From positions 35,302 through 99,301 of the forward strand of contig DVLO01000010.1 in the NCBI GenBank assembly GCA_018715495.1: DNA of 64,000 bases, given 5' to 3'. Every line of letters starts with the position of its first letter. The stretch's first letter is position 1. This document shows positions 1-20,970 of the stretch, one piece after another. The translations under genes and the position numbers were made by a program. Source of the stretch: Candidatus Limihabitans stercoravium (GTDB lineage Bacteria; Bacillota; Clostridia; Christensenellales; CAG-314). The notes under the pieces were generated by a model. The model had not been told where the DNA came from. It did not search any database and saw nothing but the letters and a program-made list of their open reading frames with translations.

Positions 1-399
1 GCATTTGCCGCTAACCCCAAGGCAGGCGTCTTGATCAAGATTACAGGCGATGCTGAAAATCCCTTCTTCTTCGGTGGTTCAAGTCCCGACATTGCAAAGA
101 TCAACTTCAAGTTCCACTACAAGAACATCGACAGTACTGAAGGTGACGACGTGAAGTACAACGATAAAGACGTATCTTTCAAGGGAATCGGTAACACCTA
201 CAATGCAGGTGCAGAGTGGTGGAGCGAAATCTTCGGTCTTCCCGGAGCATTCGTAGGACCTAACGAAGACAACCCTGCAAATAAGTACGGTTACACGGGT
301 ACAATGTACTGCGTACTCACAGCCATTACAGGTTCTTACTACCAGTTGTCATTTGTAAATGCTGACGCAATTGCAGTCACTCCGTTGACAGCGGCGTAA
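1..399 (+). CDS. 3' end of a gene cut by the window edge; hypothetical protein
   Basis: Frame 1 is open from nt 1, so the TTG at 31 in the ORF track is probably internal. TAA at 397-399. No family recognised. Confidence 0.5.
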   Translation, partial: AFAANPKAGVLIKITGDAENPFFFGGSSPDIAKINFKFHYKNIDSTEGDDVKYNDKDVSFKGIGNTYNAGAEWWSEIFGLPGAFVGPNEDNPANKYGYTGTMYCVLTAITGSYYQLSFVNADAIAVTPLTAA

Positions 400-410
400 T
401 CACACACAAC

Positions 411-472
411 GGCAGGAGGGCGGATGCCCTCCCGCCTGACAGGTAAATACGGAGTGCATTCCGCACTCCGTA
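411..472 (+). terminator. Two consecutive GC-rich hairpins after the upstream gene
   Basis: GGCAGGAGGGC/GCCCTCCCGCC (411-436) and TACGGAGTGC/GCACTCCGTA (448-472). The T-run is weak. Confidence 0.45.
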
Positions 473-512
473 ATTGCCTAAGTAGATGTAAAAATGTAAT
501 AAGAGGGGTTAT

Positions 513-1310
513 ATGAACAGCAAGAAAAACAACGCAATAGGCGTGTTTGATTCGGGAATAGGCGGATTGACTGTACTTGAGAAGTTGATTGAAATGTTCC
601 CTAACGAAAACTTTGTTTACGTTGCCGATCAGGGACACTGTCCTTACGGCACCAAGACTGCTAAGGAAATCGGCGACAGAGTGGAAAAGGTTTCCCGTTA
701 CCTGTATCAACAGGACGTCAAGGCAATTGTGATTGCCTGCAACACTGCGTCACTTCACATTGACCGTGCAAGAGCGGTTGTTGACATTGACGTACTGAGT
801 GTAATTTATCCGACGTGCGACAGGGCAGCGTCTCTGACACGCAACGGAAAAGTAGCTGTAATTGCTACTATTGCAACAATAAACAGCAATACTTATCAGA
901 ATCTCCTTACCGAAAAGGGCAAGACTCCCGTGGCGCTTGCGTGCAGTGAGTTTGTGGATTTCGTGGAAACACATTCTCTTGACGACCCCGGCATGGACAA
1001 GTTGGTTGCCGACAAGTTCAAGGAATTTCAAGACACATCATTCGACACGTTGATACACGGCTGTACACACTTCAGTCTGCTGGAAAAATCCATGCGCAAG
1101 TGTCTGCCCGACGGAATTCGCTACGTGGCATGCGGACAACCTACAGGCGAAAGCCTCAGGAAACTGCTTGCCGAAAAAGACTTACTTACAGACAGAAACA
1201 CAGCAGGAAGTGTCAAGATATACACAACAGGTGGCGTACAGAATGCTGAAAACACAATGAAGTGGTTTACCGCACAGCATGAACCTGTACAACACGTTGA
1301 CATCGACTAA
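513..1310 (+). CDS. murI: Glutamate racemase
   Basis: Motifs VFDSGIGGLTV, IACNTAS and HGCTHF; 265 aa; RBS-like GAGGGG upstream. Confidence 0.9.
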   Translation: MNSKKNNAIGVFDSGIGGLTVLEKLIEMFPNENFVYVADQGHCPYGTKTAKEIGDRVEKVSRYLYQQDVKAIVIACNTASLHIDRARAVVDIDVLSVIYPTCDRAASLTRNGKVAVIATIATINSNTYQNLLTEKGKTPVALACSEFVDFVETHSLDDPGMDKLVADKFKEFQDTSFDTLIHGCTHFSLLEKSMRKCLPDGIRYVACGQPTGESLRKLLAEKDLLTDRNTAGSVKIYTTGGVQNAENTMKWFTAQHEPVQHVDID

Positions 1311-1328
1311 AAAGGAAGGAATTACTAT

Positions 1329-2168
1329 ATGCGTACGATTGAGTTGTCGGAAGTTACGGCAAAGATAAAGAGCATGTTTATTGACGCCTGCGAAAACATA
1401 CCTGACAATGTTCTTGAAACATTGAAAAAGGCGTCGGAATCGGAACAATCACCTCTTGGAAAACAGGTGATTGACAAAATCATCGAAAATGACAAACTGG
1501 CAAGGGACAAGCATTTGCCGATATGCCAGGATACGGGCGTTGCGGTTGTAATGCTTACAATCGGTTCGGAAGTGGTATTCCACGGTGACATCTACGAAGC
1601 GGTAAATGAAGGCGTTCGTCAGGCTTACACTGAGGGATATCTCAGAAAATCGGTTGTACGTCACCCCCTTGATCGTGTAAATACACGTGACAACACTCCT
1701 GCCATTGTGCACATAAAGATGGTGGAAGGCGACACATTCCGTATTGACGTTGCTCCTAAGGGCGGCGGCAGTGAAAACATGAGTCTTGTCAAGATGCTGA
1801 TACCTGCCGACGGTGTGGAAGGAATCAAAAAACTTGTATTGGATACAGTGTTCAATGCAGGCGGCAAGCCCTGTCCCCCAATCATTGTAGGACTGGGAAT
1901 TGGCGGTAATCTTGAAAAGAGCGCAATGCTTGCCAAGGAAGCATTGTTCCGTGAAATAGACGACCATTCGCCCGATCCTCTGGCAAGAAAACTGGAAGAT
2001 GAATTGTTGGAAGAAATCAACAAACTGGGCGTAGGTCCAATGGGATTTGGCGGCACACAGACATGCCTTGCCGTAAAGGTAAATACATATCCTTGTCACA
2101 TTGCAAGTTTGCCTGTAGCAATCAACATTCAGTGCCATGCAGCAAGACACAAGTCTTGCAAGTTGTAA
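1329..2168 (+). CDS. Class I (Fe-S) fumarate hydratase / tartrate dehydratase-type hydro-lyase, alpha subunit
   Basis: CQDTGVAVV motif; 279 aa; GGAAGG RBS; followed directly by the beta subunit. Confidence 0.85.
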   Translation: MRTIELSEVTAKIKSMFIDACENIPDNVLETLKKASESEQSPLGKQVIDKIIENDKLARDKHLPICQDTGVAVVMLTIGSEVVFHGDIYEAVNEGVRQAYTEGYLRKSVVRHPLDRVNTRDNTPAIVHIKMVEGDTFRIDVAPKGGGSENMSLVKMLIPADGVEGIKKLVLDTVFNAGGKPCPPIIVGLGIGGNLEKSAMLAKEALFREIDDHSPDPLARKLEDELLEEINKLGVGPMGFGGTQTCLAVKVNTYPCHIASLPVAINIQCHAARHKSCKL

Positions 2169-2181
2169 GGAGGTTAGGGAA

Positions 2182-2730
2182 ATGATAAGACTTACAAGCC
2201 CCGTTGATCCACAGCAAATCAAGCAATTACGTGCAGGCGACGTTGTGCTTATCAGCGGTGTTATATATACGGGTAGAGATGCTGCACACAAGAGGTTGTG
2301 CGAACTGTTGAGCCGTGGCGAACAGTTGCCAGTTGATGTCAAAAATGGTATTATTTATTATGTAGGACCTACTCCTGCAAAGCCGGGAAGAGCTATCGGC
2401 TCCGCAGGTCCTACATCCAGTTACCGCATGGATCCTTATGCCGAACCTTTGCTCAAACAAGGATTGAAGGTAATGGTGGGTAAAGGATCACGCAGTAAGG
2501 AATTCAAGCAACTTTTACAACAATACGGAGCAGTTTATCTGTCGGCTATCGGCGGTGCGGCGGCATCTATTTCGGAGACAATCAAGAAGTGTGAGGTTGT
2601 CACTTACGAAGACCTTGGCGCCGAAGCCATCCACCGTCTGGAAGTTGAAGACTTCTATGCGATAGTGACTTACGACAGCGTGGGGAATGATCTATTTGAA
2701 CAAGGAATCGAAAAGTACAGGAAAATTTAA
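2182..2730 (+). CDS. Class I fumarate hydratase-type hydro-lyase, beta subunit
   Basis: GVIYTGRDAAHKRL motif. I prefer the ATG at 2182, preceded by AAGGAGG at 2167-2173, over the ORF-track start at 2137, which overlaps the alpha subunit. Confidence 0.85.
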   Translation: MIRLTSPVDPQQIKQLRAGDVVLISGVIYTGRDAAHKRLCELLSRGEQLPVDVKNGIIYYVGPTPAKPGRAIGSAGPTSSYRMDPYAEPLLKQGLKVMVGKGSRSKEFKQLLQQYGAVYLSAIGGAAASISETIKKCEVVTYEDLGAEAIHRLEVEDFYAIVTYDSVGNDLFEQGIEKYRKI

Positions 2731-3322
2731 AATTTTGTCGGTAGTGTTGGTTGCGATGCTGATCGTGCTTTCGGCTTGTCAGCCGACGGTGCAGCCTCCT
2801 CTTTATCAGCCGCAATCAACACTTCCGGAAATGGCAAGGGGGCTTGTATACGGCAAGAAGCTGTACCTTACATCCATCGGACAGGCATTGGACATCGAAA
2901 CGCTTGCGTCCAGCATGAACACCTTACAGGACATCAGTTACACAATGGACAACCTTTTGAACGCATCGGAAGTGGAAGAAGGTGCGGTGGTGTTCATCAC
3001 GGTGGGGTGCAGTTTCAAGGCACTGACGGAAAGCGGCCTGACCAAGGAATCGGAAGGCGAACGTGCACAGCAGTTTATTGACCGTGCGGACAGAGGGGAA
3101 ATTACCCTTGTGTCATGGCACATCGGCGGTATTGCACGCAGGGGCGCAACTTCCGACTCGTTGGTGGAAATGCTGTTTACACAATCCGATCTTGCACTGT
3201 TTACCGAAGCGGGCAACAGAGATTTGTTCTTGTCCGATTGGGCAATTGCGGGCGGCGTTCCGTATTGCCAGTTCACAACAAGTATAAGCGACGTGCTGCA
3301 ATACATGACGGAGAGTAATTGA
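2687..3322 (+). CDS. Putative lipoprotein, first gene of the poly-gamma-glutamate operon; start uncertain
   Basis: Hydrophobic N-terminus ending in lipobox LSAC. The 3' end overlaps the pgsB start. No family recognised. Confidence 0.55.
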   Translation: MIYLNKESKSTGKFKILSVVLVAMLIVLSACQPTVQPPLYQPQSTLPEMARGLVYGKKLYLTSIGQALDIETLASSMNTLQDISYTMDNLLNASEVEEGAVVFITVGCSFKALTESGLTKESEGERAQQFIDRADRGEITLVSWHIGGIARRGATSDSLVEMLFTQSDLALFTEAGNRDLFLSDWAIAGGVPYCQFTTSISDVLQYMTESN

Positions 3323-4437
3323 AGATGGATTACATGTTTTTGATTATTTCAATTCTTGCGGCGCTGTATGTGGCGTTTATCGTTGTGGAAAAGTTCCACC
3401 ACGAAAAACTTCGCAAGCGTCTGACACGTGTAATTCACGTCAACGGAACACGTGGCAAGAGCACAGTAACCCGCCTTATAGACGCAGGTCTCAGGGAATG
3501 CGGTTTCTCCGTTGCAAGTAAGACAACGGGTACTGTGCCCACCTACATTGACGCTTCGGGTACACCCCGTCCCATCAAGCGTATGGGGCCTGCCAATATC
3601 CGTGAACAGTTAAAGGTTATGCGTTGGGCAACTGCCGAAAAGGCACAGTATCTTGTTGTTGAATGTATGGCGGTCAATCCCGAATTGCAATACATTGCCG
3701 AACATCAGATGTTGCATTCCGACATTACTGTAATCACCAACGTGAGACTGGATCACCTTGACGAAATGGGTGAAGATCTTACAAGCATTGCCTATTCTCT
3801 TGCCAATACAGTGCCGTCGGGCGGCACATTGGTGCTGGGTGAAGAGCAGTGCAGGGAAGTATTTGAAGAAGTTGCCGAAAAGACAGGAAGTACTGTTGTG
3901 GTGGCTCAACCGTACACGGGTGAAGATTGCATGGATACAATGCCCGAAAACATTGCAACGGCACTGGAAGTGTGCCGTGTACTTGGACTGGACGAAGAGA
4001 AGTTCTTTAACGGAATGAAGAAGTACATCCGTGACCCGGGCGCACTGTCATTCCACAAGTTGGAGACCACGGTTTTTATCAACGGTTTTTCCGCAAACGA
4101 CCCGCAGTCCACCTTGGAAGTGTACAGGTCGGTCACACAGAGATATCCTGCCGACAGCATGACGGTTGTGCTGAATGCCCGTTCGGACAGAGCCTTCCGT
4201 GTAGAGCAGCACATCAACATGTTAAAGGACATGCAGTTTGCCAATGTCATTGTAACGGGGTCTAACCAGTTGTACGTGATAAATAGGCTCAAGAAACTGG
4301 GAATATCGGCAATCAGGTTTGAAAACATTGAGAAACTGAAACAGTATCCGTTTGTTTTCGGTTGCGGCAACATTGCAAATGAAGGAATGAAGATAGCGGA
4401 TTACTTCAAGGAAAACGGAGTGGAAATACATGGCTGA
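3319..4437 (+). CDS. pgsB: Poly-gamma-glutamate synthase, Mur-ligase-like subunit PgsB/CapB
   Basis: N-terminal TM helix, then HVNGTRGKSTVTRL (P-loop), ECMAVNPE and NGFSANDP. These are collinear with my recollection of Bacillus PgsB. Confidence 0.85.
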   Translation: MKMDYMFLIISILAALYVAFIVVEKFHHEKLRKRLTRVIHVNGTRGKSTVTRLIDAGLRECGFSVASKTTGTVPTYIDASGTPRPIKRMGPANIREQLKVMRWATAEKAQYLVVECMAVNPELQYIAEHQMLHSDITVITNVRLDHLDEMGEDLTSIAYSLANTVPSGGTLVLGEEQCREVFEEVAEKTGSTVVVAQPYTGEDCMDTMPENIATALEVCRVLGLDEEKFFNGMKKYIRDPGALSFHKLETTVFINGFSANDPQSTLEVYRSVTQRYPADSMTVVLNARSDRAFRVEQHINMLKDMQFANVIVTGSNQLYVINRLKKLGISAIRFENIEKLKQYPFVFGCGNIANEGMKIADYFKENGVEIHG

Positions 4438-4879
4438 AATACTTATACTTGGTGTGATACTGAGCATTGTTTTTTACGAATTGACGGACATTTCTCCCGG
4501 TGGGATCATTGTTCCCGGTCTGATGGTGATGTACATCACCCAGTGGACCAGGATGCTTTACACTGTTGCAATTGCGGTACTTGCGTATTACATTGTCAGA
4601 CTTTTAAGCACAAGATTCATCATCTTCGGCAAGAGAAGGTTTGTTGTTCTCATCATCGTAAGCCTTGTATTGCATTTTCTTATAAACTTTCTGTTGGGTC
4701 TGTTCATCAACAATCTTACGGGTATTTCCCTTTCGGTAGTGGGATATACTGTAGCCGGTATCATTGCAAATAACATTTACAAGCAGGGAATCAAGCGCAC
4801 GATTCCATCTCTTGCAATTGTAATTTGCTTGCTTGAAACAATACTGATTATTTTGGGACAATTGGGTGTCTTTCTATGA
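4430..4879 (+). CDS. pgsC: Poly-gamma-glutamate synthase membrane subunit PgsC/CapC
   Basis: 149-aa polytopic membrane protein, the same length as Bacillus PgsC, with GGIIVPGLM and AGIIANN motifs. Overlaps pgsB by 8 nt. Confidence 0.85.
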   Translation: MAEILILGVILSIVFYELTDISPGGIIVPGLMVMYITQWTRMLYTVAIAVLAYYIVRLLSTRFIIFGKRRFVVLIIVSLVLHFLINFLLGLFINNLTGISLSVVGYTVAGIIANNIYKQGIKRTIPSLAIVICLLETILIILGQLGVFL

Positions 4880-6018
4880 AAAAGGTAGTTCCCTTTCAGT
4901 CCATGATACTTGCAATATGGGCGCTGATCATGTGCGCTTCTGTTGCGTTTACGCTGACGTCACCGCAACAGACCATCAGTCCTTACTACGACGTGATGAA
5001 ACAATCGGCACTTCTTGCGCAAAAATCCATGGACGCAATTAAAGAATACAAACTCAACAACGGTATAGAAATCAGTCCCGACGACATTCTGAACACGGGA
5101 ATGCTGGGCGACCGTTACACATCAATTACAACTACGGTAGGAGTACTTGAGGCCAAGAGAACAACCTTCAACCCCAACTGGGCTGCTGTAATTGTAGGTA
5201 TGTTTGTAAAGGCAGGACTTAAACAAGGCGACCAGGTGGGAATGATTTTTTCAGGGTCATTTCCTGCACTTAACCTGTGTGCAATGGCAGCAGCACAGGA
5301 GTACGGACTCGAAGTGTGCATCATGGCGTCGGTGGGAGCATCCAGTTACGGCGCAAACAATCCCGAATTTACCTTCTTCGACATGGCGGAATACCTGTTT
5401 ACCAAACAGATACTGACCAATCGCATCGATTACATGTCGTTTGGCGGAGCGGAAGACGTAGGTATGGAATTTACCGACTACGACAAGGCACGAATCAGGT
5501 TTCGTATTGAAAGCACAGGTGTGACATTCCTGGAAGAAAGTGATTTTCACAAGAACATAAATCAACGTATTGAAATTTTTGAAAAAGAAATTCCCGACAT
5601 AAAGTTTCTTTTAAATGTCGGCGGCAGCATGGTGGGACTGGGATCCGGATTGTCGGCATTCCAGGCGTCGGGCTATGTATCTGCCAGTCACTTCGATTCA
5701 ACAGCATCAAATATTCCGGGTGTAGGTCTGAGCAAGGACTTCGGGCTGCTGGAATACTACAATGCCGGCGGAATACCCGTGGCAAATCTGTTGAACATCA
5801 AGGGACTTGCACTGGAATACGGTATTCCATACGACCCCGTCGAAATGCCTCCCATCGGCGAAGGACAGACTTATTACGCCGTAACGTACAACCTGACTAC
5901 GTCGTTTGTCTCATTGGGATTGTTTTTGGCTGTAATTATTTTCTATTGTATTCACAGGAGAAAAAACGGTACAGAGGTAAGTAAACATGAACGAAACCAT
6001 ATTCTTTGTGGAAGATGA
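4876..6018 (+). CDS. Poly-gamma-glutamate system protein sitting where PgsA/CapA normally sits; not a metallophosphatase
   Basis: ATGA overlap with pgsC; N- and C-terminal TM helices. No CapA-like metallophosphatase motifs seen. Resembles my recollection of the 'poly-gamma-glutamate system protein' family that accompanies pgsBC outside Bacillus. Confidence 0.55.
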   Translation: MKKVVPFQSMILAIWALIMCASVAFTLTSPQQTISPYYDVMKQSALLAQKSMDAIKEYKLNNGIEISPDDILNTGMLGDRYTSITTTVGVLEAKRTTFNPNWAAVIVGMFVKAGLKQGDQVGMIFSGSFPALNLCAMAAAQEYGLEVCIMASVGASSYGANNPEFTFFDMAEYLFTKQILTNRIDYMSFGGAEDVGMEFTDYDKARIRFRIESTGVTFLEESDFHKNINQRIEIFEKEIPDIKFLLNVGGSMVGLGSGLSAFQASGYVSASHFDSTASNIPGVGLSKDFGLLEYYNAGGIPVANLLNIKGLALEYGIPYDPVEMPPIGEGQTYYAVTYNLTTSFVSLGLFLAVIIFYCIHRRKNGTEVSKHERNHILCGR

Positions 6019-6679
6019 TACCACTATACATTCTCTTATAAAGGCGACGCTGGAACTCAACGGTTACAGGGCAGTGGGGTTTAAAGAACCTTTGGTATTT
6101 ATCGAAGCGTTAAAAACCACTATACCCGACCTTCTTATACTTGATCTGATGCTTCCCAACATGTCGGGCTACGACGTGATCACCTACATGAAGGGCAGGG
6201 AAGATTACGCTAAGGTTCCCATTGTCATTCTCTCTGCGCTGTCCGACGAACTGGACGTGGTAAAGGGATTGGACAACGGTGCGTCCGACTACATCAGCAA
6301 GCCTTTCGGCGTGTTGGAATTTGTGTCACGTATCAAGTCGAACTTGCGTAAGGGCAAGAATCCCGGCGAAGAAACAGACGTGCTTAAAGTACGCAATCTT
6401 GTTGTCAGTAAGAAAAAATTTACCTGCACTTTGAACGGTAAACCTGTTTCGCTGACAATAAAGGAATTTGAATTGTTGAGTCTGCTGATGCAAAACCATT
6501 CCAAGGTAGTGACACGTGGCGAACTTTTAAAGGAAATCTGGGGGTTTGACAGTGATGTTGCCACACGTACTCTGGACATGCACATCAAGACGATACGTGA
6601 AAAATTTGCAACCATTACAGATGAACCTTACATCACTACGGTAAGGGCTGTAGGTTACGTTATTTACGATGAGGTGTAA
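5987..6679 (+). CDS. OmpR/PhoB-family response regulator
   Basis: Receiver domain (VEDD...DLMLPNMSG...K) plus a winged-helix C-terminus (LTIKEFELL...TVRAVGY). Overlaps the upstream gene by 32 nt. Confidence 0.9.
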   Translation: MNETIFFVEDDTTIHSLIKATLELNGYRAVGFKEPLVFIEALKTTIPDLLILDLMLPNMSGYDVITYMKGREDYAKVPIVILSALSDELDVVKGLDNGASDYISKPFGVLEFVSRIKSNLRKGKNPGEETDVLKVRNLVVSKKKFTCTLNGKPVSLTIKEFELLSLLMQNHSKVVTRGELLKEIWGFDSDVATRTLDMHIKTIREKFATITDEPYITTVRAVGYVIYDEV

Positions 6680-6683
6680 CTGA

Positions 6684-8408
6684 ATGTATCAGGAACTTGT
6701 CAGGCGCAATGTCATCATTATTGCATTGAGTCTTGTCGTCTTTTTGCTCTTTGCATTGTACACAACCAACTACATCAATCAGAAAAACGTTACCAGTGAG
6801 TTGGTTTATCTGTCCAAGATACTTGCAGATGAAATAGATCAGACGGTGTCGGAAACGGAGGTCAGGGAAATCGTCAACAGGTTTTCCAAGGATCAGACGT
6901 GGCTCAGTATTTACATTTCCAACAGTTACGGTGACATCATGATAGACAGCACCAGCGACGGAATGGGTGAGGGGGTGTATTCCTCTTTTACTGCCCAAGA
7001 ACTTGAGCTGGTCTCCAGGATGGACCCCTCCGATCGCACCTACATCATTGATGGAAAGATATACTACATCGAACAACTCAACGACGACATAATCATGCGC
7101 ACGTCCATACAGATTGTGGACAATACAAACTACATTTTCCAAGGCGTATTTCTGCTGGGAATTGTCCTGATTGTGGTACTGTTCATCAGTATCAAGTACA
7201 CAGGAAAGACCATCGGCGGGGTAAAGGAAGCCTTTGAAAACGTCACAAACAGTATGCGCACAATCAGTAAGGGACAGTACAATGAGATAACGCAGAAATC
7301 CCCTTACCAGGAAGTGCAAAGTGCCTATCGTGAAGTAAATGCGGTAAACAACAGTGTATTTCAGTACATTCAGCGTATCAGTGCCGAAAGAGACAAGATA
7401 AACTTCATCATCAACAACATCATGGAAGGCATTGTGATAGTGGGCGTCAGCGGAAAAATCTACAGCGCCAACAAGTACGCTGTTGCAGCAATCGGAATGA
7501 AAACCGACGCCGATACCATTTCCGACGCCATGGATGACGAAATGTTCTTGTCCAACATCTTCAAGGTGGCAGAGGGCGGCGAAAAAGAACTGCGTTTCGA
7601 TTTCTACAACAATCAGACGGACAAGATTTATCTTGTCGGTATCAGCAGGTTTAACCATGAACACATTGGCGAAGACCTGATATCAATTGTTCTTACCGAT
7701 GTGACAGATTCACGCCGTGAAGAACAGATCAAGATTGATTTCGTTGCCAATGTTTCGCACGAACTCAAGACGCCCATTACTTCCATCAGCGGATTCAGTG
7801 AACTGCTGCTCAGCGGATTGGTGCAAAACCCCGACGATTTCAATCAATACATCAAGAACATTTACAAGGAAAGTTGCAACATGAAGAACACCATTGATGA
7901 ACTGTTGTATCTTTCCAAACTGGATTACAACAAGAACAAGGTGACCTTTGATGAAAGCGTTGATCTTCTGGCGCTTTCAAACAGGGTGCTTGACAACGCT
8001 CAACGCCGTGCCGACAAGCACAATGTCAGATTGTTAGACGTCCAAGGCAATTGTGTGGTGAAGGGCAGTGAGTCCTTGCTGGAACACATGCTGTCAAACC
8101 TTGTAAGCAATGCCATCAAGTACAACAAGGAAGGCGGTACTGTGGCAATCAGCCTGGGATATAAGGATGGCGTACCTTTCCTTTCGGTAACAGACAGCGG
8201 CATGGGCATTGATTCCCGTCACATTGACAAGTTGTTTGACAGGTTCTACCGTGTCGACAACAGCAGATGCCGTCAGACGGGTGGCACAGGACTGGGACTT
8301 ACCATTGTGCAAAAGATTGTAAGACTACACAACGCATCCATTTCAATAGACAGCGTGGTGGGCAAGGGCAGTACATTTACTATCACATTCGGAGGAAAAC
8401 ATGCTTAA
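6684..8408 (+). CDS. Sensor histidine kinase
   Basis: Two TM helices flank an extracytoplasmic domain. H-box VSHELKTPITSI; N box NAIKYN; G boxes DSGMGI and GGTGLGLTIV. Confidence 0.9.
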   Translation: MYQELVRRNVIIIALSLVVFLLFALYTTNYINQKNVTSELVYLSKILADEIDQTVSETEVREIVNRFSKDQTWLSIYISNSYGDIMIDSTSDGMGEGVYSSFTAQELELVSRMDPSDRTYIIDGKIYYIEQLNDDIIMRTSIQIVDNTNYIFQGVFLLGIVLIVVLFISIKYTGKTIGGVKEAFENVTNSMRTISKGQYNEITQKSPYQEVQSAYREVNAVNNSVFQYIQRISAERDKINFIINNIMEGIVIVGVSGKIYSANKYAVAAIGMKTDADTISDAMDDEMFLSNIFKVAEGGEKELRFDFYNNQTDKIYLVGISRFNHEHIGEDLISIVLTDVTDSRREEQIKIDFVANVSHELKTPITSISGFSELLLSGLVQNPDDFNQYIKNIYKESCNMKNTIDELLYLSKLDYNKNKVTFDESVDLLALSNRVLDNAQRRADKHNVRLLDVQGNCVVKGSESLLEHMLSNLVSNAIKYNKEGGTVAISLGYKDGVPFLSVTDSGMGIDSRHIDKLFDRFYRVDNSRCRQTGGTGLGLTIVQKIVRLHNASISIDSVVGKGSTFTITFGGKHA

Positions 8409-8877
8409 AGAACAACCATTGGTTACAGACGTAATAGGAGATAAGACAACCAAGACAGACGTTCGTGTGGAATTTTTTGGTGCAACAGACGAATTGTCGG
8501 CATTTATCATGAACCTGACACATCACATCGAAGACGTCAAACTTCAGATGGAATTGAAAAAGATTGTCAATCTTCTGTCCGTCATGATGGCGGAAGTCGC
8601 AGGCGGATTCGGTCACATCGGACAGAAACATCTTGACGAATTGTTGGAACTGGTGGAAAAATACGAAAAGATTGCCGGTCCTTTCAAGGGATTTGTGGTA
8701 CCCGGTACCACCCTCATGGGATCCCGTGTGCACATTGTGCGCACAGTTACCCGTCGTGCCGAACTTGCCTACGCAAGAGTGTACGAAAAGTACGGCGGAA
8801 GCGGCTACATATTTGAGTATCTCAACAAGATGTCCACATTGTTTTACGCAATTGCCCGTATTTACGACGAAAAGTGA
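8401..8877 (+). CDS. PduO-type ATP:cob(I)alamin adenosyltransferase-family protein (short form)
   Basis: VEFFGATDELSAFI and VVPGTT...VHIVRTVTRRAE...YLNKMSTLFYAIAR match the conserved PduO/MMAB blocks. Overlaps the kinase gene by 8 nt. Confidence 0.6.
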   Translation: MLKEQPLVTDVIGDKTTKTDVRVEFFGATDELSAFIMNLTHHIEDVKLQMELKKIVNLLSVMMAEVAGGFGHIGQKHLDELLELVEKYEKIAGPFKGFVVPGTTLMGSRVHIVRTVTRRAELAYARVYEKYGGSGYIFEYLNKMSTLFYAIARIYDEK

Positions 8878-8924
8878 GTTTATGGGGTGTGCCTAAAGTA
8901 CACCTGTGCAGTTGAATACCTCAG

Positions 8925-8958
8925 AAAAGGCGGATCAGTTACGATCCGCCTTTTCTGC
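8925..8958 (+). terminator. Rho-independent terminator of the pgs/two-component operon
   Basis: AAAAGGCGGATC / GATCCGCCTTTT 12-bp stem followed by a T-run. Confidence 0.8.
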
Positions 8959-9066
8959 CGTCAATATAATTTGTATTTTTTATCAAGGTGCCGCATTGTT
9001 ACAATGTGTGACGGTCTTGTATTATCTGTAATTGTGACATGCAATTAAATACTTTGCAATAGGGCA

Positions 9067-9106
9067 AACTAAAGGCAAGACCATTGTGTTGGTCTTGCCT
9101 TTAGTT
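9067..9106. terminator. 16-bp perfect hairpin downstream of the TetR-like remnant
   Basis: AACTAAAGGCAAGACC / GGTCTTGCCTTTAGTT. Confidence 0.5.
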
Positions 9107-9170
9107 GATTTCAGGTATCTTATTTATTCTAGTAAATCTATCTTTACTTAACGCAGTCTGATGTATTTAT

Positions 9171-9500
9171 TTACAAGATTTTTCTTTTTAAGATAGAAAT
9201 TACTTTTTTTTTGTAAATTCCCTTTTCAAGAATGGGCATCAGGTGATTGTCTATCATTTCGTTTACCTGTGCTTCGTCCATGTCTTCCAGTATTGCACGC
9301 AAGCTGACGAAGTTTGTTATACCCATCAGTGAGTACGCAAGGGTCATTACATCAGGCACATCGATTTCATCAATGTCACGCAGTATAGAGTTGTAGTAAC
9401 TTTTAGCGAATGAAATGTAGTAGTTTTCAAACAATTCCTTTTCTACCGACAAACTTCCCCAGATGATGTTGTAGATGTGGGGACGTTGTTTGGCGTCCAT
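9171..9500 (-). pseudogene. TetR-family regulator remnant: C-terminal ligand domain only, HTH missing
   Basis: The TetR_C-like helix pattern (LAYSLMGITNFVSLRAIL..EAQVNEMIDNHLMPILEKG) is present. There is no N-terminal HTH and no RBS. The frame is open 108 nt upstream without a start codon. A+T-rich context. Confidence 0.4.
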
Positions 9501-9958
9501 TCGGTGTTTTTGTTTGTTTCGGAATTTATCGGTAGTTACTTTAATTTGTTGTAATGTTAAGTAATTGTTTTTACGCAGTTTAGTAAACGGAGCATTACAT
9601 CCATGTGCTTATTTCTATCCCATGTGAATCTGCCAAAATGTTGATAAAAAAGAGTACTATTTTATATGTTTTTTAATTGAGTAGTGTAAAGTGCAAATGG
9701 AAGATATGATTAATTATTAGAAGTGGGGGGTAAAAATGCTTTTTTTACAAATAGACTGTAGATGTAAATTCTTATTTTAAATCGATCAAACGTATGTCTT
9801 TAGTTGTAATTTTTTACAAATCGATGTAGTAAGGCACTCAAATTCAATACTTTTACAATAAAAAATCCATTTCATTTTTCAAAAACAGTATTGACAAAAT
9901 TTTCATCTATGGTAAACTTGTAGTGTGAGCAAGTACACACTTGCTTTAAAATTATTAT

Positions 9959-9976
9959 TACTTGAACGTTCAAGTA
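9959..9976. promoter_or_regulatory. 18-bp perfect palindrome TACTTGAACGTTCAAGTA; candidate LacI-family operator in front of the GH2 gene
   Basis: Perfect dyad with a central AACGTT core typical of LacI/GalR operators. It lies 27 bp upstream of the first ATG of the locus. Confidence 0.5.
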
Positions 9977-10002
9977 GAATTTATTAAATCAAAATTTGAG
10001 AT

Positions 10003-11784
10003 ATGTCAGGGAGTGTTTTACAAATGCAGCACGTCAGTTTTTACAAAAAAGGATACCCCAGACCACAGTTGGTGAGGGACAGTTTTATGTTGCTCAACGG
10101 TCAGTGGGATTTTGCTTTCGATGAAGAGGGCAAGGGTTTGTCCGACGGATACATCAACGGATTTACAGATAAACTCAAGATAAACGTACCATTTTCTTAC
10201 CAGACGGCAATGTCGGGTATTGGTATTGAAAAGAGAGTTGACCGTGTCTGGTACAGTCGTACAGTAAATCTTACGCAGCAGCAATGCAGTGGTGATGTGC
10301 TGATTCACTTTGAAGGAAGTGACTACGAAACATCGGTGTGGGCAAACGGCAAGTTTCTGGGACGTGACAACGGCGGTTACCACAGATTGACCTTCAATGC
10401 AACAGGAGCATTGCATGAAGGGGACAACATCATTGTTGTAATGGTAACAGACGATTACAGCATTGAAAAACCACGTGGCAAACAACGTTGGAAGGACGAA
10501 AACTTTGGTTGTTGGTACACAGACACAACGGGTATCTTCAAGACTGTCTGGCTGGAATTTGTTTCTCACAAGAGATTGGACAATGTGTTGATTGAGGGAA
10601 ATTCCGACGCACATTCCGTAGCAATCAGTTACGACGTATTAAATTGTGATTACGTAAACGACGACATCAAGGTAAAAGCAACCATTACATATAAAGGTGA
10701 CAAGGTTTGCGATGTCACATGTCCAGTCACAAGTGCAACAAGCGGTATGAACATCTGGCTGGGCGAAGAAGTAAATCTCTGGCAGGTAGGCGAAGGAAAT
10801 GTGTACGAAGTAAATCTTCAGTTGATGTCGGGCGACGAAATGCTGGACAATGCAGACAGTTACTTCGGATTGCGTAAAGTTGAGGCACGTGACGGTAAGA
10901 TCTACCTAAACGGCAACGAACTGTACCAGAAGTTGGTACTTGATCAGGGCTACTGGAAGGGCAGTGACCTTACTCCTCCCTCCGAACAGGCGTTGGAAGA
11001 CGATATCACCGACATGCTGGCAATGGGATTCAACGGCGCACGCAAGCACCAGAAAGTTGAAGACGAACGTTTCCTGTACTACGCAGATATGTACGGATAC
11101 ATTGTGTGGGCTGAAATGCCTTCCATGTACAAAAACACCGAAAACAGCCGCAATACATTCAAACGTGAATGGAAACTGGCAGTAAATCAGCAACGCAATC
11201 ACCCATGTATTCTGGTGTGGGTACCGTTTAATGAAAGCTGGGGTGTTGAAGACATTCTGTTCGACAAGACAGTGCAGGACTTTGTAAACGAAGTTTACCA
11301 CGAAACCAAGGAGATGGACGGCACACGTCTTGTAGTAACAAATGACGGTTGGGAACACACAATTTCCGACATCCTGACAATTCACCACTACGAACAGGAC
11401 GGCGAAAAGCTGCACAGATACTTCGACAGTGTAGACAAGTGTTGTCAACATGTATGGCAATCTCACCACAAGGGAGCGTTTGCCAACGGTTACCGTTACA
11501 ACGGTCAGCCCATCATGATTTCGGAATTTGGCGGAACGGCATTTGTAAAGGATACTGTAGGTAACAATTGGGGATACGGTCAGGGAGTTACCGACAACAA
11601 GGAATTTTTACAACGTTTCGACGGATTGATCAAGGCAATTGACAGTCTTCCTTACAGTTGCGGATACTGCTACACACAGGTAACTGACGTACAACACGAA
11701 GTAAACGGATTGCTTGATTTCGAACACAAGTCCAAGTTTGACAAAAAGCAAATCAACGAAATTTTGAACAGACACGGAAGATGA
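10003..11784 (+). CDS. Glycoside hydrolase family 2 (short, about 590 aa)
   Basis: Shows LNGQWDF (sugar-binding domain), NGARKHQK and WVPFNESWG (TIM-barrel acid/base region). An alternative start at 10024 has a better RBS (AGGGAG). Confidence 0.8.
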   Translation: MSGSVLQMQHVSFYKKGYPRPQLVRDSFMLLNGQWDFAFDEEGKGLSDGYINGFTDKLKINVPFSYQTAMSGIGIEKRVDRVWYSRTVNLTQQQCSGDVLIHFEGSDYETSVWANGKFLGRDNGGYHRLTFNATGALHEGDNIIVVMVTDDYSIEKPRGKQRWKDENFGCWYTDTTGIFKTVWLEFVSHKRLDNVLIEGNSDAHSVAISYDVLNCDYVNDDIKVKATITYKGDKVCDVTCPVTSATSGMNIWLGEEVNLWQVGEGNVYEVNLQLMSGDEMLDNADSYFGLRKVEARDGKIYLNGNELYQKLVLDQGYWKGSDLTPPSEQALEDDITDMLAMGFNGARKHQKVEDERFLYYADMYGYIVWAEMPSMYKNTENSRNTFKREWKLAVNQQRNHPCILVWVPFNESWGVEDILFDKTVQDFVNEVYHETKEMDGTRLVVTNDGWEHTISDILTIHHYEQDGEKLHRYFDSVDKCCQHVWQSHHKGAFANGYRYNGQPIMISEFGGTAFVKDTVGNNWGYGQGVTDNKEFLQRFDGLIKAIDSLPYSCGYCYTQVTDVQHEVNGLLDFEHKSKFDKKQINEILNRHGR

Positions 11785-12680
11785 AAGAACTTATACTGAC
11801 AGATATCACCGATATTGGTGATCCATATGTACTCAATTACAACGGAACTTACTACATGTACGCAACTTCGTCGGCTGACGGGTTCAAGGTATGGAAATCC
11901 ACAGACCTTAAAAACTGGACGGACTGCGGACTGTGTTACTTCAAGAAAGACAGTTACGGTTACATGGATTTCTGGGCTCCGGAAGTAGTGGTTCGCAAAG
12001 ACGGCAAGTTGGTAATGCACTTTTCTGCAAAGGACAGGCAGTCAAACGGACTTCGTATCGGCGTTGCCATTGCAGACAAACCCGAAGGACCTTTTGTCGA
12101 CGCAGTAAAGGACAAGCCCATGTTTGACCTTGGATACTGTACAATCGACGCTCACTGCTTTACCGATGATGACGGCACAAGTTACCTTTACTACGTAAGG
12201 GACGTTGCCGACAACATTCAGGACGGTATTCACAAGAGCGAAATTTACGTTTCTAAGCTTGACGAAACATTGACGAAACTTGTGGGCGAACGTGTCAGAG
12301 TGACCACGCCCGAAGGCGTTGAAGAAACGTCACTTATTCCCGATTGGCAGTGGAACGAAGGACCTTTCGTTTTAAAGCACAACGGAAAGTACTACTTAAA
12401 CTACTCGTACAACATCTTTAACAGCAAGGAATACTCGGTAGGAGTTGCTATTTCCGACAATCCGATGGGCGGGTTTGTCAAGGTGGACAGAAATCTGCTC
12501 CGATATACAGACACCATGTCGGGTCCCGGACACAACGCCTACTTTACAGACAATGACGGTCAGTTGTGGTGTGCATTCCACATTCACACTCACTACGACA
12601 AGCCAAGCGGTGACAGACGTGCATGTCTTGCACCGGCACAATTTGACGCTGACGGACGATTGGTCGTTCGTTACAAATAA
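11781..12680 (+). CDS. Glycoside hydrolase family 43 (arabinofuranosidase/xylosidase-type)
   Basis: GDPYV (catalytic Asp), FWAPEV, TIDAH and WNEGPF (catalytic Glu). ATGA overlap with the GH2 gene. Confidence 0.85.
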   Translation: MKELILTDITDIGDPYVLNYNGTYYMYATSSADGFKVWKSTDLKNWTDCGLCYFKKDSYGYMDFWAPEVVVRKDGKLVMHFSAKDRQSNGLRIGVAIADKPEGPFVDAVKDKPMFDLGYCTIDAHCFTDDDGTSYLYYVRDVADNIQDGIHKSEIYVSKLDETLTKLVGERVRVTTPEGVEETSLIPDWQWNEGPFVLKHNGKYYLNYSYNIFNSKEYSVGVAISDNPMGGFVKVDRNLLRYTDTMSGPGHNAYFTDNDGQLWCAFHIHTHYDKPSGDRRACLAPAQFDADGRLVVRYK

Positions 12681-12697
12681 TTTCAGGAGGAATAACA

Positions 12698-14854
12698 ATG
12701 AAAAGAAAGGTAGCATTGGCGTTGTTGGCATTGGTGCTGGTTCTTTCCATGGTTACAGCAGTGGCATGTAACCCGCAGGAATCTAGCGAATCTTTCAAGA
12801 TTACCATTGCCGAAACAACAAATGGTACGATTACGGCTGACAAGCAAACAGCCAAAGAGGGCGAAACGGTCACTCTGACTGTTACACCTGACGAAGGCTA
12901 CATCTTGAAGAGCGGTTCATTGAAGTTCAATGACACTGCAATTACAGGCACAACATTTAAAATGCCCAAACAGGATGTAACAATTACGGCTGAATTTACA
13001 AAAGACATGACAGGCGTTACTGTTGAAACCATCGAAAAAGACGGCTTGAAGATGTCCGCAACACAGCTCAGCAAGACTGCAACAGCCTATCTGTTTACAA
13101 CATTCGGTGAAACGGCTCTGACATTTACCGCTTTTGTTCAGGACGTTACACTGAAGGACGGCGACGGCATGAAGGTGATGTTCGCATCCGAACAGGAAAT
13201 TGTAAATGCAGTTCTTCCTGATGGCAAGACAATTTCAATCGAAATCACACATGACGGAAACAAGCTCATCCAGACAACAGACGAAGAAGGCAAGTTCGTT
13301 GATCTTACCGAAGGCGCAACTGCAACACTTGAACTGTGGTCGGAAAACGGCACTGAAGTTGACGGTTACAAGGTTGTAATGACAGTTGATTACGCTAAAC
13401 TGGGTCTTACTAAAGACACTGCTAAAGACAGCATTACGTTCTGCCCGTTGCTGTACAATGCAAGTTCTAACATTGCTCCCAGCAAAGGTTACATCAACAA
13501 TGTAATGGATGAAAACAAGTCAAATACTTACATGGTTGTAGTTGATGACAACCAATACAGAGCAAATGCTTACGAAAGCGGTACAGGTCAACTTGGTTCG
13601 GTAAGTTACATTGCACACGGTCAGTACTGGGATTTGTCACAGGATTACTACAAGTCCAATCCTGATTACGCAAACCGCAAGGCTGTTCTTACAGGACACG
13701 ACAACGCTGACAACAACCTGATGTTCTACCGTACAAGTGGTGAATTGATGTACGCACAAGCTACAATCAAGGTAACATCATTTACAAATCCCAACGAAGC
13801 ATGGGGCAAGTTCGGTATGATGCTGTTTGACGGACAAAGCGTGAACGGTTTGTTCTTCTACGTTGACGCATTTGCTAGTCAACCCGGAAATATCGACAGT
13901 ATTGGTGGTACAGCAGTAGGTACAAACAAGGCAGTAGGCGGATGGGGAACATGGAGCGCTGTAAAAGACGGCGTGTTCAACCTTGAAACAAAGACAATCA
14001 CTTTGGCAATGGTTTACCAGAACGGCTACATTCACCTTTACGCAGACGGTGTAAAGGTTGGTTCGGTTTACTACGGCAAATACAATCAAAACATGCACTT
14101 CGGTCTTAAATCCTTCGGATACGGACTGGAAGTAACTAATTACTTTGCTTCCACAGATCCCGTTGCTGACGGTTGGGAAGACAAACTGGAAACAATTGAA
14201 AAAGAAGACATTGACACATTGTTCATGGGTGATTCCTACATGGAATTCTGGAAGAACAGCGGATTTACAAGTCACGTTGCACAACTTCCCAGTTACGCAA
14301 ATGAAGGTATCGGCGGAACAAAGACAATCGATTGGATGAACAAGTTGCAAGACATGTCTGCTAGATACAATCCTTCTAACATTGTAATGCACATTGGTGT
14401 AAACGACATCGATGACGAAGGTTTGACCAAGGAACAAGCAACAGCAAGATTGCTTGAACTGTTCAATGCTTACCATCAGACATTCAGCGACGCTCAGTTG
14501 TATTGGGTAGCACTCATTCCCAACACAATGTTTGCTGACAAGGTAGCAACCTACAACGAAGTAAATGCCGAAATCAAGGCGTTTGCCCAAAACAACAACT
14601 GGCTTACATATATCGAAGCCGACGAAGCATTTACAACCGAATCGGGCGGTGCAAGAGTCAACATGTTCTACGACGGTCTGCACCTCAACAGAGAATACGG
14701 TTACCCATTGTGGGCTAAGCTCATCATGGAAGCATTGGGATATACCCATGCTGAAGGCACAGAACTGGGTGACGGCACAAACTTCGCTTATTCCGACGGC
14801 TGGACATTCATCGAAGATGGTGCAAAGGCTTACAACACAGGCAACGGCGAATAG
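12698..14854 (+). CDS. Surface lipoprotein with a B-repeat, a CBM9-like region and an SGNH/GDSL esterase domain. It ends at an in-frame TAG that probably interrupts a longer gene.
   Basis: Signal peptide with lipobox VACN. SGNH blocks FMGDSY, EGIGGTK, HIGVNDI and DGLHLN. See the finding on the TAG at 14852-14854. Confidence 0.75.
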   Translation: MKRKVALALLALVLVLSMVTAVACNPQESSESFKITIAETTNGTITADKQTAKEGETVTLTVTPDEGYILKSGSLKFNDTAITGTTFKMPKQDVTITAEFTKDMTGVTVETIEKDGLKMSATQLSKTATAYLFTTFGETALTFTAFVQDVTLKDGDGMKVMFASEQEIVNAVLPDGKTISIEITHDGNKLIQTTDEEGKFVDLTEGATATLELWSENGTEVDGYKVVMTVDYAKLGLTKDTAKDSITFCPLLYNASSNIAPSKGYINNVMDENKSNTYMVVVDDNQYRANAYESGTGQLGSVSYIAHGQYWDLSQDYYKSNPDYANRKAVLTGHDNADNNLMFYRTSGELMYAQATIKVTSFTNPNEAWGKFGMMLFDGQSVNGLFFYVDAFASQPGNIDSIGGTAVGTNKAVGGWGTWSAVKDGVFNLETKTITLAMVYQNGYIHLYADGVKVGSVYYGKYNQNMHFGLKSFGYGLEVTNYFASTDPVADGWEDKLETIEKEDIDTLFMGDSYMEFWKNSGFTSHVAQLPSYANEGIGGTKTIDWMNKLQDMSARYNPSNIVMHIGVNDIDDEGLTKEQATARLLELFNAYHQTFSDAQLYWVALIPNTMFADKVATYNEVNAEIKAFAQNNNWLTYIEADEAFTTESGGARVNMFYDGLHLNREYGYPLWAKLIMEALGYTHAEGTELGDGTNFAYSDGWTFIEDGAKAYNTGNGE

Positions 14855-14863
14855 GTTGTATGG

Positions 14864-17800: not shown

Positions 17801-17953
17801 ATTCCTTACGGTGTTGCTCACGGTGGAGATATTTCACAAGGTATCAGCATTGCATGTGCCGTAGTTACAGGCAACAGCTGGGGAACAGTGTTCGGTAACT
17901 GGGACGCTACAACATTCCGTGTAACAGACAACGGCGTTGTAAACGTTGCTTGA
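14864..17953 (+). CDS. ConA/LamG-like domain, two B-repeats and four CBM9-like modules. This is probably the C-terminal continuation of 12698..14854.
   Basis: Same frame as the upstream ORF; no signal peptide and no RBS. Repeated (V/T)IDG.LD modules with W-rich strands. FPKFGAIL matches the paralogous domain in 22817..25270. Confidence 0.7.
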   Translation: MKNASGSDIYAEFNATIGQVYNNDGFPKFGAILRNDDVSIFGYVDAVGLATGAGGKGSNIVYRPNITLAGGFGAAGDWQWNNQPGGSQINGEYTNGTYVKVAIAKLGNQIVLWINDVLVSKTTAAYIDATDVVTVGFAGFNLEMTVEGLYVTTDIQEITEKVEGPEAADAVIDGVADDAIYTEQVLGFTSSFGLQNDGKTHFTLSGVKGTDGVYFIATIIAPENTRNGPNWWEYANIEFRFGNDDLIQHYIYFNQPGFSSVASSNGITQVASDGGKLIEDGEYAGMYKVVVEFFAPFTSFAGCDASTEEIPVKAWGWVYGEQGWTHGMNVGTWNAYTASEQGLRFQRNITVEGNNVAVTVTPSKTTAYSGETITLDVQLQEGQQIESIKVNGEAITEQDGIYSFTMPDEDVVIEVALQGISVTTKTEMPEGTTGATITTDKGTAAIGETVTFTVEFPSDVTLKSLTVNGEAIEITGGTYSYTVKETDTKVEIIATFDYATEMTIDGVLDPEENYGEPVGFLVEGNRKVTVYAVKGENGIYFFVEAYTDTLINDNTAQWFMNHNFEFYLNNGAQCYVNSRSESVGVTKFIWESSLIDVGEFNGKYRHVAEIFVHKSLIDNFGEEIQLNYAFKAPNETARWEGMSNNQWNRGDWWNNYIGGADGNIVGAFGQGKGRPANLFITSEGLVCKLPVAQNGTIDGDLTEFAEKTSVTVGNENAKFVVTGYTAEDGLYMAFTIKQKQLAEPTAEWHLNDNIEIKINNGYNPDDPTQAALYAGRSAGFSLYDKFIVAMGPVTDYAMIRTEIDEDGYKYQTVVELFIAMDNPVMATNIQLGCNGNGFGGWQSLIWDANYAYINANGVYYLNDLVALESITIDGQLDEGMADLASVTGTWNEDTIVLTGKKLQHGIVLYTTITHKISVDQRLQGDSGEEWWRYLNVEFRLGGNNWMQVCGSVKNNYTQFCAMGISTTGEGPYTTTFETYIPYGVAHGGDISQGISIACAVVTGNSWGTVFGNWDATTFRVTDNGVVNVA

Positions 17954-17990
17954 CAATTTAAATTACCGTATTAAAACGGTTTAAAACAAC

Positions 17991-18075
17991 TATTCCTTCC
18001 GACGCAGGGCAACCTGCGTCGGGCAAAAGGAATACTGCACAGCACAAAGAGGTGTTGTGCTGTGCAGTATTTCTT
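17991..18075 (+). terminator. Tandem/alternative hairpins ending the glycosidase operon
   Basis: TATTCCTTCCGACGCAGG...CCTGCGTCGG..AAGGAATA, then AATACTGCACAGCACAA/TTGTGCTGTGCAGTATT followed by a T-rich tail. Confidence 0.7.
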
Positions 18076-18104
18076 TAAAGTCTTTCATGTAAATGGGGGC
18101 AACA

Positions 18105-19055: not shown

Positions 19056-19117
19056 AACCGTTACAAACGCCTGTTTATCAAGGCGTGTAATATAGAAAAC
19101 AATTTTGGAGGAATATC

Positions 19118-20962: not shown

Positions 20963-20970
20963 ACATTGAA

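Follow-up and report, generated by a model that had tools for sequence, protein, structure and literature searches.

A PgsA-less pgsB-pgsC locus with an adjoining two-component pair in Candidatus Limihabitans stercoravium, and its relatives in other bacteria

Poly-gamma-glutamate is known as the virulence capsule of Bacillus anthracis, as a biofilm and food polymer of Bacillus subtilis, and as an industrial product. The mechanism of its synthase, especially the export role of PgsA, is still poorly understood. In the capBCADE operon of B. anthracis and the pgsBCA(E) operon of B. subtilis, the gene order is ligase, small membrane subunit, and membrane-anchored protein with a large external domain (CapA or PgsA), while glutamate racemase supplies D-Glu and a gamma-glutamyltransferase (GGT)-family enzyme is linked (capD on pXO2). 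The regulators of the polymer genes are unlinked in Bacillus (DegS-DegU, ComP-ComA, and SwrA in B. subtilis; AtxA, AcpA, and AcpB in B. anthracis). Candela et al. reportedly described in 2009 that F. nucleatum secretes polyglutamate and that Gram-negative bacteria have three-gene clusters whose third gene is unrelated to CapA/CapE. PgsA-less three-gene clusters are already covered by an NCBIfam model (TIGR04332, gene symbol pgsW), and CapsuleFinder, in which CapA is an accessory component, detects PGA-type systems across many phyla (PMC5542703). Here I describe a locus of this kind in a 64,000-nucleotide stretch of contig DVLO01000010.1 of Candidatus Limihabitans stercoravium, a Clostridia species not yet cultured (the window, meaning the whole stretch that was analysed). 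Positions 513-8877 of the window are read as an operon for a PgsA-independent membrane synthase of a gamma-linked glutamate polymer, sensor included. The probability of this reading is put at roughly 65%, and the synthase part of the picture taken alone is considered highly likely. An initial annotation, made from the letters of the window, had taken the export or anchoring step of PgsA-less systems and a dedicated two-component system to be uncharted. A literature search indeed found no papers mentioning TIGR04332, bacterial pgsW, or DUF6305, but the three-gene clusters themselves had been recognised before. What appears to be new is the Firmicute forms, their fixed accessory set, and their natural gene fusions.

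As listed in Table 1, PgsB and PgsC of the window score above the curated cut-offs of their equivalog models. The third protein does the same with TIGR04332, the match covering profile positions 5-307 of 307. Thus, the initial annotation had named PgsB and PgsC correctly, and its guess that the third protein is a "poly-gamma-glutamate system protein" was right as well. PgsB has an intact P-loop (GTRGKS) and an N-terminal transmembrane (TM) anchor at residues 5-23, and is 34% identical to CapB of pXO2. PgsC has four hydrophobic helices. The two are true members of the PgsB and PgsC families, as in the Bacillus operons. In contrast, the third protein has no match to PF09587 (CapA) even at E≤10, while B. 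anthracis pXO2 CapA gave 265.4 bits in the same search. PF09587 was also absent from all seven proteins encoded from the DUF6305 gene to the PduO-like gene in a Pfam search. When the profile of the PgsW family was compared with CapA by hhalign, the probability was 0.8% and the N-terminal TM helix alone was aligned. Moreover, no CapA-family ORF recurs across the 81 loci compared in this study. The earlier statement that the third protein lacks CapA/PgsA features is therefore upheld. By these profile comparisons, the locus is a PgsA-less pgsB-pgsC system with a TIGR04332 third gene (pgsW) unrelated to PgsA/CapA.

What kind of protein is PgsW? In the AF2 model (pLDDT 88.5, pTM 0.84), an alpha/beta domain of about 310 residues is flanked by TM helices at residues 7-28 and 341-378. 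The positive charges on both termini, together with hydropathy, place this domain outside the membrane. In this model, the third subunit of the window would differ from that of the Bacillus operons in having two TM helices instead of one and in its fold. Invariant residues of the family cluster in the motifs ITTTxG..AKRT, SGSFPALN, GASSYGAN, SxGGxxD, and NVGGS, and they include D70, K94, T96, S126, S128, N133, S156, D194, and R231. Foldseek gave only TM-scores of 0.15-0.18 for the model in the Protein Data Bank (PDB), and the PgsW profile had no match among PDB sequences. Solved Pgs structures were sought in the PDB by sequence and profile searches and none was found; PgsB matches MurT alone, with 22 bits. 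The PgsW family is large, comprising 1,427 clusters at 50% identity (E≤1e-3).

Is this arrangement common in other species? An alignment of PgsW was scanned against one genome per species, which gave 294 relatives, and 80 species-level loci were kept. The locus set includes Oscillibacter valericigenes, Fusibacter paucivorans, Paratissierella segnis, and Pygmaiobacter massiliensis. The order pgsB-pgsC-pgsW on the same strand was found in essentially all 80 loci. The families of the neighbouring genes were defined by an unbiased clustering of all surrounding ORFs and counted out of 81 loci. PgsW was assigned in 77 loci, PgsB in 75, and PgsC in 66, followed by DUF6305 (52), AstE-like proteins (43), a response regulator directly downstream (42), a DctM-like permease (29), GGT (28), a multi-pass kinase called HK2 (24), the 1260-aa lipoprotein and a PhoR-like kinase called HK1 (18 each), FumA/FumB (16), MurI (14), and a PduO-like protein (11). 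DUF6305, AstE-like, DctM-like, and GGT genes recur around pgsBCW in Firmicutes and Cetobacterium, and murI lies beside the pgs genes at several different positions depending on the lineage. The PgsA-less form is thus widespread among gut Clostridia and lineages resembling Bacilli, and in most cases two-component genes lie directly 3′ of the synthase genes.

The census of the downstream genes was limited to the 63 informative loci in which 3 kb or more of sequence lies 3′ of pgsW. Two-component genes lie directly 3′ of pgsW in 42 of them, and the other 21 have none. There are 17 Type I loci, in which a regulator is followed by HK1 as in the window; 23 Type II loci, in which HK2 is followed by a regulator with a DpiA-like helix-turn-helix; and two loci with a regulator only. 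In the PgsW tree, Type I forms one clade and Type II another, while a clade of Bacteroidales, Desulfobacterales, and Nitrospirae-type sequences lacks the two-component genes. Thus, co-conservation of the pair with pgsBC, as anticipated in the initial annotation, was confirmed in 17 Type I species with the junction spacing kept. Two unrelated families of sensors occupy the same position in two clades, which argues for a functional coupling and against an accidental synteny. It appears that two different two-component systems were independently recruited 3′ of the synthase genes, which also appears to be new, and the pair is probably coupled in function to the polymer genes. A Type II example is found in Fusibacter (locus L049, 11026-18499), where pgsB-pgsC-pgsW is followed by a 6-TM kinase, a regulator with the DpiA-like domain, and then the accessory genes in the order DUF6305, DctM-like permease, AstE-like, and GGT. 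The same architecture is found in about 23 other Type II loci.

Some lineages have natural fusions of PgsW with its neighbours. In a PgsC-PgsW fusion (P0324, 474 aa), the last TM helix of PgsC stands in for the first TM helix of PgsW, which argues for direct contact of the two subunits and for an outside-facing ectodomain. PgsW-AstE fusions (P0219 and P0224, 604-618 aa) were found in two clusters and four data sources; in these proteins, the former lipoprotein signal serves as a third TM helix and keeps the AstE domain outside. A PgsW-HK2 fusion (P0284, 821 aa) was found on at least eight contigs of "Candidatus Aphodomonas merdavium", while it is split into 365 and 455 aa in other assemblies of that species.

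Table 1. Features at the beginning of the window (curated cut-offs of the models in parentheses)
Feature	Position	Strand	Evidence
3′ end of the 1260-aa lipoprotein gene, with aBig_2 Ig-like domain; last gene of the upstream accessory module	1..399	+	Pfam aBig_2; lipobox LTAC; 18 loci
Pair of stem-loops (411-436, 450-472) separating the lipoprotein gene from murI; likely transcription-unit boundary	411..472	+	fold
murI, glutamate racemase; first gene of the string	513..1310	+	TIGR00067 197.1 bits (146.65)
fumA, class I (Fe-S) fumarate hydratase alpha subunit	1329..2168	+	NF004885 406.9 bits (276)
fumB, Fe-S hydro-lyase (fumarate hydratase) beta subunit	2137..2730	+	NF005310 267.4 bits (238)
DUF6305 lipoprotein; alternative later start at 2735 possible	2687..3322	+	PF19823 89.1 bits (25); lipobox LSAC
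pgsB, amide ligase (ATP-dependent) of poly-gamma-glutamate synthase	3319..4437	+	TIGR04012 333.2 bits (222.7)
pgsC, four-TM synthase subunit	4430..4879	+	TIGR04011 110.2 bits (96.45); PF14102 108.9 bits
pgsW, third membrane protein, in PgsA/CapA position	4876..6018	+	TIGR04332 294.2 bits (100)
OmpR/PhoB-type response regulator	5987..6679	+	PF00072 and PF00486
Sensor histidine kinase, PhoR lineage by sequence	6684..8408	+	PF00512 (HisKA) and PF02518 (HATPase)
PduO-type protein of the Cob_adeno_trans family; final gene of the string	8401..8877	+	PF01923 92.8 bits (24)
Terminal stem-loop, probable terminator; 15-bp stem, 6-nt loop, 45 nt past the last stop codon	8922..8957	+	fold

In the window, these genes form a packed unit of ten, murI-fumA-fumB-DUF6305-pgsB-pgsC-pgsW-regulator-kinase-PduO-like. 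The initial annotation had described a seven-gene unit starting with the lipoprotein gene and ending in a strong terminator, with a racemase gene 1.4 kb upstream. All seven ORFs were found on the plus strand where it had put them, as was murI, and the six junctions were the same (overlaps of 4, 8, 4, and 32 nt, then a gap of 4 nt and a last overlap of 8 nt). Its first protein, for which a profile search had been proposed, turned out to be a DUF6305 member. The packing thus stood, while the start did not, since murI, fumA, and fumB are equally tight: the gap between murI and fumA is 18 nt, fumA overlaps fumB by 32 nt, and fumB overlaps the ATG codon of the DUF6305 gene by 44 nt. The terminal hairpin is as strong as had been thought (−28.3 kcal/mol, z=−6.0, with none of 200 shuffled sequences folding as well). 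A scan for consensus terminators did not call it, because it has its U-run within the stem and lacks a U-tail behind it. At the other end, the sequence of 400-450 folds with −21.3 kcal/mol (z=−3.95), and the second hairpin leaves about 40 nt before the start of murI. A GC-rich hairpin lies 30-80 nt 5′ of murI in nearly all Type I species (the window and L002-L024), and these hairpins mark the 5′ boundary of the unit there.

The junctions are alike in about 20 Type I species. Their medians are +13.5 nt for murI-fumA, −32 for fumA-fumB, −44 for fumB-DUF6305, −11 for DUF6305-pgsB, −4 for pgsB-pgsC, −1 for pgsC-pgsW, −32 for pgsW-regulator, +4 for regulator-kinase, and about 0 for kinase-PduO-like. 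This spacing is kept though PgsW identity drops to about 40% and the metagenome-assembled genomes are labelled as Christensenellaceae, Clostridia, Acholeplasmataceae, and Bacillales. Since the spacing is shared by so many species, it is not due to chance. The PgsW of Type I often ends in a conserved cytoplasmic tail, (K/R)xERN(Y/H)ILC(R/G)R, which is encoded at 5990-6018 in the window. The coding sequence of the tail coincides exactly with the 32-nt overlap with the start of the regulator gene, so that this stretch is constrained in two reading frames. Recent horizontal transfer of the operon was also considered, and nothing in the composition suggests it, with the GC content flat at 0.44-0.50 over positions 1-9000.

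The kinase of the window has TM helices at residues 10-28 and 151-169 with an external loop of about 120 aa between them, followed by a PhoR-alignable cytoplasmic linker, HisKA, and HATPase. Two TM helices and a loop of about 120 aa were found in all 18 Type I kinase species, and the catalytic motifs of the window's kinase and regulator are intact in sequence. In NCBIfam, the kinase scores 301.8 bits with PnpS and 261.7 bits with PhoR, both under the cut-offs (400 and 334.2), and the best match of the regulator is PhoB (190.9 bits, under the cut-off of 296.2). A genuine pst-phoU-linked Clostridial PhoR scores almost the same (PnpS 295.3, PhoR 256.3), and the pst-linked pair is also below those cut-offs. 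A word-indexed search with the sensor region, which missed 30-50% orthologues present in the locus set, gave the same species, with a protein identical to the kinase at 100%, then relatives of 91% and 63%, and then pst-linked PhoRs of 24%. The nearest non-orthologous relatives (P0182 and P0177) are encoded in pstS-pstC-pstA-pstB-phoU-regulator-kinase operons. Identity to pst-linked PhoR is 31% for the kinase from residue 133 on, with the external loop not alignable, and the regulators share 40%. Because of the near-equal NCBIfam profiles, the pst-linked nearest relatives, and these identities, the pair is assigned to the PhoP/PhoR lineage on sequence grounds.

The pair thus shares the domain order of the PhoP-PhoR (PnpR-PnpS) systems of Firmicutes, but it lies at the 3′ end of a polymer-synthesis operon and not next to pstSCAB-phoU. 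No pst or phoU genes were found in the roughly 50 kb around the pair that L001, L082, and L088 jointly span. The initial annotation had proposed that polymer synthesis is wired to its own sensor. The linkage holds; the sensor being of the PhoR lineage, it may be a dedicated paralogue or the Pho system of the cell. In B. subtilis, PhoPR replaces teichoic acid in the wall, which is rich in phosphate, by phosphate-free teichuronic acid. By analogy, a similar switch logic for a phosphate-free polyanion is conceivable here. Type II kinases are different: they are about 470 aa long, have 5-6 TM helices without a large external loop, and match no named equivalog model. These kinases, unlike that of the window, may be likened by analogy to intramembrane-sensing kinases that survey a partner machine in the membrane, such as BceS with BceAB.

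It was also seen that the accessory genes extend beyond the window, which opens inside the 1260-aa lipoprotein gene. The upstream region was therefore read from a near-identical strain (L001 and L088; the gene at 1742-5524 of L001 corresponds to window positions −3383..399). The genes on the same strand are citrate-lyase genes, two GGT genes, a DctM-like permease gene, a 54-aa ORF, an AstE-like gene (485 aa), a DUF6305 gene (223 aa), a second AstE-like gene (259 aa), and the 1260-aa lipoprotein gene, followed by murI through pgsW. Thus, the ten-gene string forms the 3′ portion of a larger island on one strand, most of which falls outside the window. With the GGT, permease, AstE-like, and lipoprotein genes, candidates for degradation, anchoring, and uptake of a polymer are present. 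The DUF6305 protein, its paralogue, the 259-aa AstE-like protein, and the 1260-aa protein have lipoprotein signal peptides, and therefore act outside the membrane. In the AF2 model (pLDDT 81.5), DUF6305 is an alpha/beta domain of flavodoxin-like type, for which a search of the PDB gave no specific relative at E<1e-3. The residues invariant in the family are acidic and rich in Arg. The DUF6305 gene of Type II loci and of Cetobacterium lies directly 5′ of the gene for the DctM-like or TRAP-type large permease, and this very regular pairing suggests that DUF6305 is a binding partner of the TRAP-like permease.

Within the string, fumA is lacking in five of the Type I loci. A PduO-like gene lies after the kinase gene in 11 of the 17 Type I loci and never in Type II, and its coupling is therefore weak. 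The PduO-like protein scores 98.0 bits with TIGR00636, short of the cut-off of 108.45, and its closest solved chains are PH0671 and BH1595 (of unknown function), ahead of YvqK and L. reuteri PduO. That either fumAB or the PduO-like gene has a role in polymer metabolism is doubtful. The citrate-lyase genes found 5′ of window position 1 (L088, 1-9974) include those for CitF, citrate lyase ligase, and CitX/CitG. Citrate/citramalate lyase, class I fumarase, and a PduO-type protein together could hint at the methylaspartate route (B12-dependent) of glutamate fermentation; neither glutamate mutase nor methylaspartase was found in the reachable sequence.

Compared with the Bacillus operons, two GGT genes upstream of the string parallel the linked capD gene. 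In contrast, murI and the two-component genes lie inside the operon in the window, and its DUF6305, AstE-like, DctM-like, and 1260-aa lipoprotein genes have no counterpart in Bacillus. The annotated record of Cetobacterium somerae has a pgsB-pgsC-pgsW triad whose third gene belongs to the same NCBIfam family and bears the symbol pgsW, with ggt, DUF6305 ("DUF6305 family protein"), TRAP-type large permease, and "succinylglutamate desuccinylase" genes directly upstream. The Gram-negative-type pgsBCW loci of the set compared here (Bacteroidales, Desulfobacterales, and Nitrospirae-type) have no two-component genes after pgsW. Compared with such clusters, the window adds murI, fumAB, a pgs-adjacent DUF6305 paralogue, the putative PhoPR-lineage pair, and the PduO-like gene in one packed string. 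Four Bacteroidales-type loci (L071, L072, L073, and L079) have an accessory set unlike that of Firmicutes: pgsBCW is preceded by a gingipain-like protein of 1257 aa (Peptidase_C25), which carries a C-terminal domain for type IX secretion, and a conserved 303-aa protein without a Pfam match follows.

A possible mechanism is as follows. MurI would supply D-glutamate, and the membrane-anchored PgsB and the four-TM PgsC would polymerise D/L-glutamate at the membrane. PgsW may replace PgsA/CapA as the extracytoplasmic third subunit, with its ectodomain held between the two TM helices, and may touch PgsC and take or pass on the emerging chain outside the membrane. The DUF6305 lipoprotein could act there on the polymer or its fragments by binding glutamyl carboxylates. 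The upstream module (two GGTs, DctM-like permease, AstE-like hydrolases, a second DUF6305, and the 1260-aa lipoprotein) might trim, anchor, or recycle the polymer. The co-transcribed pair of the putative PhoP/PhoR lineage would couple expression of the operon to an envelope-related or phosphate-related signal, the direction of the control being presumed like the signal itself.

Several observations weigh against this picture of a regulated polymer operon. A product has been demonstrated for no PgsW-type system in Firmicutes. PgsW has no recognisable fold relative, so that its role is read only from position, topology, and fusions. Upstream of murI, no promoter, Pho-box-like, or other shared repeat was found among 14 Type I species, only the hairpins; with about 40 nt left before murI and no convincing promoter, control by read-through or attenuation is possible. 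fumAB and the PduO-like gene have no evident tie to a polymer and, as noted above, are absent from several Type I loci. In Francisella, "capA" bears the TIGR04332 product name, so that it belongs to the family by annotation name (PMC5362203), and capBCA is required for virulence, but neither polyglutamate nor a role in a capsule was detected (PMC4688374, PMC2897883). One may ask, then, whether PgsBCW makes not a high-molecular-weight capsule but short gamma-glutamyl chains, or decorates another envelope component, with turnover by the GGT and AstE-like enzymes and re-import by the DctM-like permease. The locus would then serve as a glutamate buffer, a store, or an envelope modification rather than a shield. 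The strong Francisella phenotype fits this explanation, and so do the PgsW-AstE fusions, which couple a synthase component with a hydrolase-type domain, and the linkage of GGT, AstE-like, DctM-like, and DUF6305 genes to the synthase genes, which is far tighter than in Bacillus. However, the equivalog models that PgsB and PgsC pass were trained on genuine polyglutamate synthases, and in B. anthracis the GGT-family CapD is linked to capBCA as well, where it serves anchoring rather than catabolism. Polyglutamate is also reported to be secreted by F. nucleatum, whose cluster has three genes. This explanation is thus considered rather unlikely. A locus that mainly captures and catabolises exogenous polyglutamate or gamma-glutamyl peptides from the gut, with pgsBCW minor or vestigial, is very improbable: the two GGTs, the permease, the lipoprotein hydrolases, and the adjoining citrate-lyase genes would suit it, but pgsB, pgsC, and pgsW are all intact and conserved and always occur linked, and the co-transcription of murI, the supplier of D-Glu, with the pgs genes points to synthesis.

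The regulatory part of the proposed mechanism faces another objection. The regulator, kinase, PduO-like, and fumAB genes may be syntenic passengers, the pair being a housekeeping PhoP/PhoR without specific control of the polymer. The kinase and regulator score like a genuine pst-linked PhoR/PhoP and could be the general phosphate system of the cell residing here, as is also consistent with the pst-linked operons of the closest non-orthologous relatives and with the lack of a second Pho system (pst/phoU) in the contig parts read around the pair. Type I is a single clade of PgsW, so that the co-linearity could be partly inherited from a shared ancestor, and FumAB and PduO are 75-93% conserved, against 40-74% for PgsW, as expected of housekeeping genes. 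On the other hand, an unrelated kinase-regulator pair at the same position in a second clade (23 loci), sometimes fused to PgsW, is hard to explain without a functional coupling. The −32 nt junction of pgsW and the regulator gene and the +4 nt junction of the regulator and kinase genes persist at about 40% PgsW identity under both Clostridia and Bacilli/Acholeplasmataceae labels, and the external loop of the kinase cannot be aligned with that of pst-linked PhoR. A mere passenger status of these genes is therefore not favoured and is considered unlikely, and the reading as a polymer operon with its sensor is preferred.

It is tempting to go further and see the Firmicute PgsW systems as self-monitoring envelope-polymer machines, although all parts of such a speculation are unlikely to hold together. 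In this joint proposal, PgsW would be an extracytoplasmic subunit of a new fold that functionally replaces PgsA, and the in-operon PhoR-lineage paralogue might, by analogy with the B. subtilis wall switch, make a phosphate-free gamma-polyglutamate inducible by phosphate or wall stress. The Type II intramembrane kinase would be a direct sensor of synthase activity, and this would account for its occasional fusion to PgsW. DUF6305 would represent a new class of (poly)glutamate-binding lipoproteins that serve both the synthase and the TRAP-like permease. In any case, the locus offers several handles on the synthase: a candidate PgsA replacement with a confident model and invariant residues, fusions that predict PgsC-PgsW and PgsW-kinase contacts, and a candidate regulatory signal. 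It may also help to explain the virulence locus capBCA of Francisella, long a puzzle, in which "capA" seems to be a member of this family too.

Beyond the terminator, the composition of the window changes. Positions 9000-10000, right after the operon, are AT-rich (GC content 0.32, against 0.45-0.47 in the flanks). A lone minus-strand ORF at 9171-9500 (109 aa, no Pfam match on record) may be what is left of a gene, as it resembles a TetR-type regulator reduced to its C-terminal half. It is followed at 10003-26280 by a plant-polysaccharide utilisation cluster with a GH2 gene, three GH43 genes, a LacI regulator, an ABC sugar transporter, a GDSL-type lipase/esterase with Flg_new_2 repeats, and a 1029-aa protein without a Pfam match.

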